Source: an uncultured Bacillota bacterium (GTDB taxonomy: Bacteria; Bacillota; Clostridia; Christensenellales; UBA1242). Taken from it: DNA of 64,000 bases. The position numbers and the translations under genes are program-made. This document shows positions 57,571 to 59,320 of this stretch, one piece after another (position 1 is the first letter of the stretch; each line of letters begins with the position of its first letter). A model generated the notes under the pieces. The model was not told the origin of the DNA and did not search any database. It saw only the letters and a program-made list of their open reading frames with translations. The stretch spans positions 17,291 to 81,290 of the forward strand of contig CASFPO010000007.1 of NCBI GenBank assembly GCA_949296805.1. The letters are read 5' to 3'.

Positions 57571-57599
57571 TTGACAAAGGCTAAATAAAGGAATATAAT
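57571..57599 (+). promoter_or_regulatory. Consensus sigma-A promoter for initiator tRNA
   Basis: TTGACA (57571-76), 17 nt, TATAAT (57594-99); the tRNA starts 13 nt later. Confidence 0.8.
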
Positions 57600-57611
57600 A
57601 TATAATGTTAT

Positions 57612-57688
57612 CGCGGGATGGAGCAGTTCGGAAGCTCGTCGGGCTCATAACCCGAAGGCCGTTGGTTCAAATCCAACTCCCGCAACCA
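57612..57688 (+). tRNA. Initiator tRNA-fMet (anticodon CAU), CCA encoded
   Basis: C1-A72 mismatch (CGCGGGA.../...TCCCGCA-A-CCA). Three G-C pairs closing the anticodon stem (TCGGG-CTCATAA-CCCGA). T-arm GTTGGTTCAAATCCAAC. Confidence 0.92.
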
Positions 57689-57948
57689 CGTCGCAAACTA
57701 CGCTCGGACAAAATTGCTTTGCAATTTTTGTACTGACGCTCGTTTGCTCCTTTTCCCCACAAATCTCACGATTTGCGGGGTACCCCATATCTCCCCCACA
57801 AATCTTACGGTTTGCGGGGGTTTTTTGTAAGCCAGACTTTTTTATCGGTTTCGGGTTATATCAAGCTCAATGAAGTTGAGCGAAGATATAATCTCGTTTT
57901 CGGCTGTTAGTTCTTTTAACTCCCGCAACCACGTCGCAAACTACGCTC
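57675..57948 (+). repeat. 212-bp hairpin cassette bounded by a perfect 31-bp direct repeat that includes the last 14 nt of tRNA-fMet
   Basis: AACTCCCGCAACCACGTCGCAAACTACGCTC at 57675-57705 and 57918-57948. The interior holds the inverted B module and hairpins CCCCACAAATC-TCAC-GATTTGCGGGG (57755-80) and CCCCCACAAATC-TTAC-GGTTTGCGGGGG (57793-57820). Confidence 0.85.
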
Positions 57949-58010
57949 TGCAAAAAAAGTCTAGCTTTTGGAGTTCGCCTCATTTTGCCAGACTTTTTTA
58001 TTATAAATTT

Positions 58011-58756: not shown

Positions 58757-59320
58757 ATGTTTAAAATAAAAGACCTTTTGTTATATTTAAGTGCCTTTGT
58801 TCCGATGTATGTATTAATCCTCTTTAGGCTTATCATTGATATAATTAATGATAACCTTTCTTTTAATGTACTTAATACCATTAATCTTATTACCCTTTTG
58901 CTTTTAATTGCACTTGGAATAGCTGGTCTTTTTATCAATGTTTTTCATCAAAAGGATATAGAAAGAAAGGTTATCATTATTAAAAAACAAAACATTACTG
59001 ACAGGCATTTTTTAGGTTATTTTTCCCTTTTTGTGCTGTTTGCTTTGCAACTTGAACTCTCGCTTGTGAGTGACTATTGTTTGTTTATATTAATTTTAAT
59101 TTTTATAGGTGTAGTTTATATAAAAAATTCCCTTTATTATATCAATCCTCTTTTAAATATACTTGGCTACAACTTTTATGACATTGTCTATATTGAAGAA
59201 ACAAGTCACTCCAAAGGCGAATGCAAAATTTTTTACCGAGGCGAGCTTAAAACCAATCAAAGTTATTTAGTTAAATTTAAAAATGACAACTTTGCTTTTA
59301 TTGATAAAAATAAAAGATGA
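58757..59320 (+). CDS. Membrane protein (about 4 N-terminal TM plus small C-terminal soluble domain), function unknown
   Basis: 187 aa. No obvious RBS, so the start is uncertain. Confidence 0.5.
   Translation: MFKIKDLLLYLSAFVPMYVLILFRLIIDIINDNLSFNVLNTINLITLLLLIALGIAGLFINVFHQKDIERKVIIIKKQNITDRHFLGYFSLFVLFALQLELSLVSDYCLFILILIFIGVVYIKNSLYYINPLLNILGYNFYDIVYIEETSHSKGECKIFYRGELKTNQSYLVKFKNDNFAFIDKNKR

Follow-up and report, generated by a model that had tools for sequence, protein, structure and literature searches.

The DNA behind the initiator tRNA gene (tRNA-fMet) of the genome studied here is probably the fossil of a recombination-prone tandem array, rather than one inserted element. The window (the entire stretch of 64,000 nucleotides that was analysed) lies on contig C7 of this genome (G000), whose assembly comprises 1.12 Mb in 49 contigs with a G+C content of 33%. 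A 31-mer (AACTCCCGCAACCACGTCGCAAACTACGCTC) occurs at this locus in two copies that are exact, as the preliminary description had stated, and no match to it was found in 100 shuffles even when up to three mismatches were allowed, so that the chance expectation is none. Since the tRNA gene ends at position 57688, the first copy takes in the last 14 nt of the tRNA and 17 nt beyond it. The likeness of the two 31-mer regions extends further, to 39 nt with 92% of positions identical, and upstream of the second 31-mer tRNA positions ~46-63 are present as a degenerate copy. By comparison with related loci, the second 31-mer belongs to the end of a pseudo-copy, old and in part decayed, of the initiator tRNA's 3' portion ('unit A'), which consists of a long hairpin, a degenerate T arm and the acceptor tail. 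The 31-mer itself would then be the boundary of a 243-bp tandem period and not an att core or a target duplication around a 212-bp insert. Hence, of the att-like duplication proposed in the preliminary description one part holds, namely that the second copy stems from a duplication of a tRNA 3' end of the kind made by recombinases, while the notion of an att pair around a 212-bp element does not.

Table 1. Features at and behind the initiator tRNA gene of G000 (positions in the window).
Feature	Position	Strand	Basis or remark
Promoter-like site (TTGACA, 17 nt, TATAAT)	57571-57599	+	12/12 consensus positions; 12 nt upstream of the tRNA
Initiator tRNA-Met(CAT), CCA encoded	57612-57688	+	ARAGORN; Rfam tRNA 62.9 bits
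31-mer, copy 1: tRNA positions 64-77 and first 17 nt of trailer/B module	57675-57705	+	Exact match
B module: outer stem GCAAAC/GTTTGC, ACGCTC on both sides, inner hairpin ACAAAATTGC/GCAATTTTTGT	57690-57750	+	Folds as predicted
H hairpin 1 (CCCCACAAATCTCACGATTTGCGGGG)	57755-57780	+	Member of the 21-copy, 8-cluster hairpin family
H hairpin 2 with T6	57793-57826 (hairpin 57793-57820)	+	Fold; T-run read from the sequence
Right half of ancestral tRNA terminator (GCCAGACTTTTTTAT)	57831-57845	+	Direct repeat, second copy at 57987-58001
Unit A stem-loop 1 (GGGTTATATC .. GATATAATCT), extended anticodon-arm-like hairpin	57853-57894	+	Fold
Degenerate copy of tRNA positions ~46-77 (GGCTGTTAGTTCTTTTAACTCCCGCAACCA)	57902-57931	+	Comparison with the tRNA and the perfect 32-nt copy of G010/L025
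31-mer, copy 2: pseudo-tail and first 17 nt of truncated B module	57918-57948	+	Exact match
Terminator-like hairpin closing the array (AAAAAAGTCTAGC .. GCCAGACTTTTTT)	57953-58001	+	Inverted repeat; fold

The DNA between the two 31-mers (212 bp) is overlapped only by ORFs of a purely mechanical kind (43-56 aa), in agreement with its earlier description as gene-less. Neither terminal inverted repeats at its ends (57706 and 57917) nor a recombinase gene in or beside the cassette were found, and none of the 14 recombinase genes of G000 is located on this part of contig C7. A MITE was rejected as a reading of the cassette on account of the missing terminal inverted repeats and because the repeat, at 31 bp, exceeds a target duplication of 2-10 bp and is part of a tandem period that relatives share; an integron attC site was rejected since the hairpins do not contain a GTTRRRY core. 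The interior is a mosaic in which a B-H-H repeat is combined with one half of the ancestral terminator and with a pseudo-tRNA unit of greater age. The complete order in G000 is tRNA, B-H-H, the right half of the old terminator, unit A with its decayed T arm, the tail, the first ~23 nt of a further B module, and a terminator (Table 1). Within the degenerate tRNA copy, the T arm has decayed and the acceptor tail and the CCA are intact. The hairpin that closes the array faces a convergent 222-aa ORF. As reported in the preliminary description, two CCCC..GGGG hairpins are present, the second of which is followed by T6; this is the first terminator-like structure downstream of the tRNA, and it probably serves as the present terminator of the tRNA transcript. 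The trailer as a whole (57689-58005; 317 nt from the CCA to the closing terminator) is a row of hairpins (z = -6.4 vs shuffles). Searches of Rfam 15 with the window, with this region at a relaxed threshold and with six related loci returned nothing but tRNA matches.

For comparison, we gathered relatives via MetRS; these are uncultured Clostridia or Candidatus Onthoplasma with genomes of ~1 Mb from animal guts. The initiator-tRNA loci of about 35 genomes of the genus formed the comparison set, and about 25 of them were informative. Seventeen of these ~25 loci (15 recognized by tail match, and those of G021 and G006 by eye) contain one to three extra copies of the tail within 350 nt after tRNA-fMet, at spacings of 104-126, 169-170, 217 or 243 nt (104-243 nt overall). 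The repeated units are gene-less and follow one plan: a Rho-independent terminator right after the CCA, a short complementary arm, a loop, and a direct copy of the tRNA 3' part that runs to the CCA. The short arm pairs with the start of the tRNA-derived piece, and each unit ends in the tail of the host's tRNA, which is then followed by a terminator. According to where the copy begins in the tRNA, units of type C start at position 37 (arms GGGTTA..TAACCC; G011, G014), those of type A at position 46, or only at 64 when decayed (arms GGTTATATC..GATATAACC; G000, G010, L025, L028, L032, L055, G002, G398, G423, G426), and those of type B at position 52 (arms ATTTGAACC..GGTTCAAAT; G006, G007, G015, G023, G277). 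Copies that match the tRNA perfectly from position 37, 46 or 52 onwards are present among the relatives. Stem-loop 1 of unit A is present in G423 with an identical loop and has homologues in L025, G010, L028, L032, L055, G002, G398 and G426.

Copies inside one array are identical or nearly so, with full identity in L004, L055 and L044. Host-specific variants of the tail are common to a tRNA and its units (CCTGCTCCC, CCATTTCCTGCA, CCAACCCCC), and a T-to-C change specific to G000 is likewise present in both its tRNA and the pseudo-copy. As the tails match the host's own tRNA, the units would appear to swap sequence with the gene and to gain or lose copies by homologous recombination between tails. 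Empty sites, to which the preliminary description had pointed as a check, were sought and exist in the genus: a tRNA with its terminator and zero tail copies is found in L007, L021/L323, L039, L041, L046 and L047. A second full-length copy of tRNA-fMet was present at the locus in none of the relatives compared. In a pattern scan across 401 genomes of the order, tandem tails at this spacing were confined to this genus; the remaining matches look like chance, and a reversed control pattern matched at a similar rate.

The layouts of individual relatives allow the locus of G000 to be reconstructed. In G010, a complete terminator hairpin (AAAGTCTGGCTTTTGCCAGACTTTTTT) stands directly after the CCA and is followed by unit A, a perfect 32-nt copy of the tRNA and the same terminator again, which yields a direct repeat of 61 nt. 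L025 carries, behind its tRNA, a terminator, unit A, the copy, B-H, a second terminator and a decayed unit A; G000 aligns to this locus once the first unit of L025 is removed, and the derived TGTTAG in the decayed T arm is common to the two genomes. The most informative relative is G423, in which the tRNA is followed by two terminators, unit A, the tail, B-H, three terminators and a further unit A, so that the terminators themselves are tandemly repeated. Positions 57851-57948 of G000 are ~97% identical to unit A, the tail and the start of B in G423, and the second copy of the 31-mer is orthologous to the G423 pseudo-tail with its full B module. G426 has three units, with B-H behind the second. 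In G424 and L320 the trailer motif GTCGCAAA stands after the true and the pseudo tail alike, and B is missing; L320 was the sole related locus obtained from a metagenome scan for unit A and is useful only as a further layout. Given that G000 corresponds to a G423-like array minus the first unit, the 31-mer falls on the boundary of the period. In G000, H hairpin 2 occupies the place that the left half and the loop of the ancestral terminator have in the relatives.

These layouts suggest the following history. Site-specific recombination at the initiator tRNA in the ancestor of the genus would have left behind a small module in which a terminator is followed by a hairpin, with a 3' arm that forms the beginning of a tRNA 3' copy, and by this copy as far as the CCA. 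Comparison of the present loci shows that gene-less units of this sort have persisted at the tRNA-fMet gene of most relatives, as single units or in tandem sets of up to three, and that in the subclade of G000, G423, G426 and L025 a B and a hairpin module lie directly after one CCA tail of the array. As the layouts of G423 and L025 indicate, recombination between the true tail and the first pseudo-tail would then have deleted the first unit of G000, which would have placed B-H-H directly behind the real tRNA and left the next junction of tail and B 243 bp downstream. The downstream B module would later have been truncated, and the two junctions would be what is now seen as the 31-mer. A likely consequence is that the ancestral terminator was broken and that B-H-H took the place of its left half. 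An exchange of sequence between gene and copy would explain why the 31-mer is perfect while its counterpart in L025 has decayed. Both the gene-conversion and the deletion steps are reconstructed from the layouts. Since it is devoid of a T arm, the pseudo-tail would be dead as a part of a tRNA and probably also as an att site.

The modules that now separate the two 31-mers have relatives in many places of the genome. H hairpins (26-28 nt; CCCC..GGGG) occur 21 times in eight clusters of G000, and a pattern search for B modules yielded seven, each followed by H, to which two found by eye at the end of contig C11 can be added. B and H occur in both orientations; the B copy behind tRNA-fMet is inverted relative to those behind tRNA-Glu and tRNA-Ser, and its earlier description as their reverse complement is thus correct. 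Further hairpin modules (A, C and D) form mosaics with B and H: module A or D is found directly after the CCA of tRNA-Glu, Leu(caa), Pro and Ser, and at the tRNA-Glu and C28 loci an H-H-H-B block is located inside module D. For six of the eight H clusters, the nearest tRNA gene is no more than 250 nt away (P about 3e-5, even vs non-ORF DNA only), and the remaining two adjoin tRNA fragments. The stems of the modules vary in sequence while the pairing is kept. Other species have modules at the same tRNAs, namely G010 and G024 behind Glu-ttc and G022 and G003 behind Leu-caa. The direct repeats of 59 and 22 bp at tRNA-Glu and tRNA-Ser, which had been grouped with the 31-bp repeat as the borders of three tRNA-linked cassettes, are real; however, they are second copies of modules A and D and not tRNA ends, for they contain no tRNA sequence. 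GCGCCACCGCCA, found beside inverted B copies, was considered as the end of another tRNA; this was rejected because no tRNA of the genome ends in this way, and the sequence is the right arm of module D.

REP and BIME elements of Proteobacteria and BOX elements of pneumococci are mosaic intergenic palindromic repeats. The modules B, H, A, C and D resemble them as short imperfect palindromes in intergenic clusters whose structure is kept while the sequence varies; they are numerous, and variable in number and orientation. By this resemblance, B and H may be filed with the REP/BIME/BOX-like repeats. They differ from these in their strong link to tRNA genes and tRNA fragments and in that no RAYT-type transposase is associated with them: no RAYT gene flanked by modules was found in G000, and the sole intact Y1 transposase gene (contig C8) has unrelated flanking hairpins. 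A decayed Y1 transposase gene adjoins tRNA-Leu(tag). B and H constitute a separate genus-wide family of palindromic repeats that is linked to tRNA genes, and here they are lodged right after a CCA end. The mobile miniature family envisaged in the preliminary description is borne out insofar as the hairpin modules are tRNA-proximal, but the interior as a mosaic and the 31-mer as a boundary of a tandem period do not agree with it.

With respect to their origin, the units most likely go back to attachment-site modules without cargo, used by recombinases that target tRNA genes, and they now expand and contract by homologous exchange. The starts of the tRNA copies (positions 37, 46 and 52) coincide with the integrase sublocations in tRNA genes as these are given in the account of Williams (2002) cited in PMC9897764 and in the Islander work (PMC4383910). 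Among 55 phage-borne partial copies of tRNA-fMet in IMG/VR, 22 are preceded by an anticodon-loop motif in inverted orientation, at a distance of 72-98 nt upstream from the T-loop motif GGTTCAAATCC, compared with 1/55 in the control; many of the 55 phages are related, and the 22 are therefore not independent cases. From these numbers, an inverted piece, a spacer and a direct copy would be a natural layout of an att site. If it arose by site-specific recombination, a unit would roughly correspond to a permuted attP (core, P' arm, P arm, core) from which all cargo has gone, and the tandem copies would result from unequal exchange between tails.

Integrases elsewhere in the genome, whose presence the preliminary description had proposed as a check, are found many times over, and so are classic partial tRNA copies. 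G000 is rich in recombinases for so small a genome, with 10 tyrosine integrase matches above the cut-off and four serine recombinases, many of them directly beside tRNA genes. Its classic islands are bounded by tRNA positions ~32-77, and partial copies of this classic kind lie in some cases kilobases from the intact gene (tRNA-Ala at 5.4 kb, tRNA-Ile at 2.8 kb), while those of tRNA-Lys, Tyr, Thr and Gly are on other contigs. Arm-type direct repeats adjoin these classic copies, and the hairpin layout of the units is absent there. In G009, a classic integrase adjoins a fragment of tRNA-fMet (positions 33-77). A serine-recombinase island is docked at the tail of a unit in G007 and at the true tail in G005; the right end of the G005 island was sought and not located.

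No intact element that uses a unit as its att site was found in IMG/VR or in the genus. The scan of IMG/VR for type A units (GGTTATATC..GATATAAYC) gave generic AT-rich palindromes only, none of them near a tail of tRNA-fMet; that for type B units gave zero matches, as did a metagenome scan for the junction of tail and B. In a strain comparison made via the neighbouring 222-aa protein, the only long contig, from another assembly, was identical, and no polymorphic assembly was found. The repeat is also the point at which the short contig of this comparison breaks off, and the 31-mer coincides exactly with the end of a Logan contig. The absence of an intact element, repeats that often span the whole terminator, islands of G000 without the hairpin, and hairpins that are kept across species are the four points that speak against a recombination origin or leave it open, and because of them three rivals stay in play: duplication without a recombinase, an RNA with a function of its own, and an att site folded from a single strand.

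Doubtful, although worth stating, is the idea that a unit is a cargo-less, self-propagating attachment-site module, either moved in trans by tRNA-targeting recombinases or inserted as a folded single strand, which would multiply docking sites in such a way that islands hit a dummy tail and not the essential single-copy gene. It seems unlikely to us that the 243-bp period of G000 is a living miniature of this kind, i.e., a non-autonomous integrative element whose gene-less att module is moved by a recombinase in trans. The perfection of the 31-bp repeat, the 14 recombinases that could act in trans, the identical copies in L004, L055 and L044 that point to a recent change in copy number, a unit size (104-243 nt) within the range of a complete attP, and the docking of a serine-recombinase island at a unit tail (G007) or at the true tail (G005) would all fit. 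However, neither the T-loop part nor the anticodon-loop part, at which the known tRNA integrases make their crossover, is present in the second copy, and the mosaic interior is composed of pieces that have had different histories in the relatives. Moreover, homologous unequal exchange accounts for identical tandem copies without an integrase, and neither an excised form nor a strain polymorphism nor a cognate integrase came to light.

That the hairpins of the units are kept across species could mean that they are under selection for a function. The units, and perhaps also B and H, might accordingly be regarded as a functional RNA, that is, as structured trailers or small RNAs whose transcription would accompany or follow that of the initiator tRNA, with possible roles as terminators, processing signals, or acceptor-tail minihelix mimics for enzymes that handle tRNA-fMet. 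We hold this to be improbable, even though the 317-nt trailer folds far better than its shuffles, stem-loop 1 and the tail hairpin are conserved from species to species, a terminator stands behind every unit, and modules directly adjoin the CCA of several tRNAs, with other species having modules at the same tRNAs. There is no match to an Rfam family, no promoter-like site was found for the unit, and either orientation with respect to the tRNA is seen for B and H; many relatives are without any unit, the one of G000 itself has decayed, and the stems exhibit mainly plain sequence conservation and little true covariation.

No recombinase at all would be required if the tRNA gene had simply been duplicated in tandem together with its terminator, and if the 5' part of the extra copy had then decayed, with slippage or unequal exchange to follow. 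Because the 31-mer reaches 17 nt past the tRNA and the repeats of G010 and G011 span the terminator, the data fit such a duplication as well as, or better than, a recombination of attP with attB, and the direct repeats that reach through the terminator (61 nt in G010), the regular period of the arrays and the tandemly repeated terminators of G423 are all in keeping with it. We nevertheless regard it as quite unlikely in view of the sharp starts of the copies at 37, 46 and 52, the integrase sublocations of Williams (2002) as cited in PMC9897764; each start is paired with an upstream complementary arm, as in the phage-borne partial copies of tRNA-fMet, and in no relative is a second full-length copy present at the site.

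Very improbable, finally, is an integron-like array on the initiator tRNA, in which the units would be folded single-strand att sites like integron attC or the attP(+) of the CTX phage, with a hairpin that rebuilds a duplex copy of the tRNA target and cassettes inserted as single strands: the hairpin base of each unit does coincide with the 5' edge of the tRNA homology, the cassettes stand in tandem, and type B combines two 7-bp stems, one outer and one inner, with three extra-helical bases and a loop that varies, but the attC consensus GTTRRRY is matched at 6/7 positions and in type B only, the inverted arm of type C reaches beyond any partner in the unit, the spacing of the arms varies from 4 to 65 nt, the cassettes are gene-less, and no integron integrase was recognized at the level to which the 10 tyrosine recombinases were typed.

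The reading preferred here, a fossil tandem array, shares features with several known systems. Where islands or prophages with a tyrosine integrase occupy tRNA genes, displaced tRNA fragments (attL and attR) result (Reiter, 1989; Williams, 2002; Islander, PMC4383910), and these are likewise copies of a tRNA 3' part downstream of the intact gene; the copies in the relatives similarly start at the anticodon loop or the T arm, and G000 itself has textbook examples of such fragments together with integrases. In contrast to these, neither an integrase nor cargo is present between the repeats, and the perfect repeat consists of tRNA positions 64-77 and 17 nt beyond; furthermore, the units (104-243 nt) are in tandem and have a copy start that is paired with an upstream complementary arm. 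The tycheposon islands of Prochlorococcus (bioRxiv 10.1101/2020.12.28.424599) offer a parallel in a streamlined genome with many tRNA-targeting elements, stacked partial tRNAs and decayed remnants. The partial tRNAs of tycheposons are, however, kilobases apart among genes, whereas the arrays described here are gene-less with a regular period of about 115-243 nt. CIMEs, or cis-mobilizable elements, are remnants of ICEs that keep flanking att sites but no recombination genes; they are kilobases long and carry genes. They resemble the units as DNA that is flanked by att-type repeats and has no recombinase of its own, and they are thought to arise by deletion and to be able to grow by accretion (ICEberg 2.0, PMC6323972; PMC5704250). 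Mobility in trans has been demonstrated for CIMEs, while the units are known from their sequence.

Collectively, the feature would be a decayed member of an apparently undescribed combination of tRNA att scars with mosaic palindromic repeats; no description of the genus-wide pattern of tail-ending units and tRNA-clustered palindromic modules was found in Rfam or in the literature searched. The 31-bp repeat itself is a modest result, a scar inside a decaying array. Pseudo-tails of this type break assemblies and can be mis-called as att sites or tRNA fragments. The wider pattern is that a genus of gut Clostridia with genomes of ~1 Mb keeps hairpin-bearing units behind its initiator tRNA, and if these units are more than scars, they would represent mobile DNA of the smallest site-specific kind, or else a novel RNA linked to tRNA genes.

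In G000, the genome from which the window derives, tRNA-Leu(cag) and an 18-nt copy of its tail flank a 3.2-kb island that codes for a large serine recombinase. At the far end of this island are the short palindromic modules A and C of the tRNA-linked repeat family, together with an inverted T-arm copy and an H hairpin (the 26-28-nt CCCC..GGGG module of this family) that immediately precedes the tail copy. In the related genome G005 (tRNA-fMet locus L058), an island of ~5.5 kb is inserted immediately 3' of the tRNA-fMet CCA; its coding content includes a 598-aa serine recombinase as well as a GIY-YIG/T5orf172-like ORF. In the relative G007 (L014/L059), this island is inserted 3' of the CCA in the tail copy of a unit, that is, of a gene-less hairpin followed by a copy of the tRNA-fMet 3' part.

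The neighborhood of tRNA-fMet and metG has been inverted repeatedly among the relatives (loci L021-L055): the relative orientation of the two genes flips, and the distance between them varies from 0.2 to 2.5 kb. At the tRNA-fMet locus of G423 (L334), three 40-nt units, each composed of a GGGG-N-CCCC mini-palindrome and a terminator hairpin (GCGGGGGACCCCATTAGGCTGGCGTAAGCCAGCTTTTTTT), are arranged in tandem, with an H hairpin on one side and the next unit of type A on the other. The first unit of G006 (L018) is unreadable because of a run of N, which represents withheld or masked sequence, inside the locus. At locus L320, an IS200 remnant separates tRNA-fMet from its unit. The 212-bp cassette of the window itself is adjoined by a 187-aa ORF, for which PF28043 (KwaA, Kiwa defence) is among the precomputed Pfam hits and for which a Pfam scan gave no match at E<=0.001.

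Coordinates of tRNA-associated and neighboring features
Feature	Genome, contig	Positions
tRNA-Leu(cag) island	G000 C43	934-4224
tRNA-Leu(tag) pseudo 5' half	G000 C49	8661-8820
Decayed Y1 transposase frame	G000 C49	9128-9274
Intact IS200-type tnpA	G000 C8	20232-20597
tRNA-Thr(ggt) 5' halves	G000 C20	1528-1662
Further site given with tRNA-Thr/tRNA-Arg(acg) 5' pseudo-pieces	G000 C24	49298-49335
Further site given with these pseudo-pieces	G000 C41	13077-13410
Run of N, tRNA-fMet locus	G006 C1	around 145420-145650
40-nt tandem units	G423	300-440 (tRNA-oriented)
187-aa ORF	G000 C7 (window)	58757-59320 (+)

Immediately upstream of the real tRNA-Leu(tag) gene of G000 lies a pseudo 5' half that is split by a pair of H hairpins; after it, this piece recurs in inverted orientation. 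The layout upstream of tRNA-Leu(cag) on C43 is the same, with a different hairpin. An IS200-type transposase frame with six stops is located 200 nt downstream of tRNA-Leu(tag), and the genome also contains an intact tnpA of this type.

Upstream of the intact tRNA-Thr(ggt), the 5' half (positions 1-39) occurs twice in tandem, ~100 nt apart, and both copies stop within the anticodon loop. Comparable 5' pseudo-pieces precede a second tRNA-Thr and tRNA-Arg(acg). On the upstream side, these pieces correspond to the tail units that lie downstream of tRNA genes.
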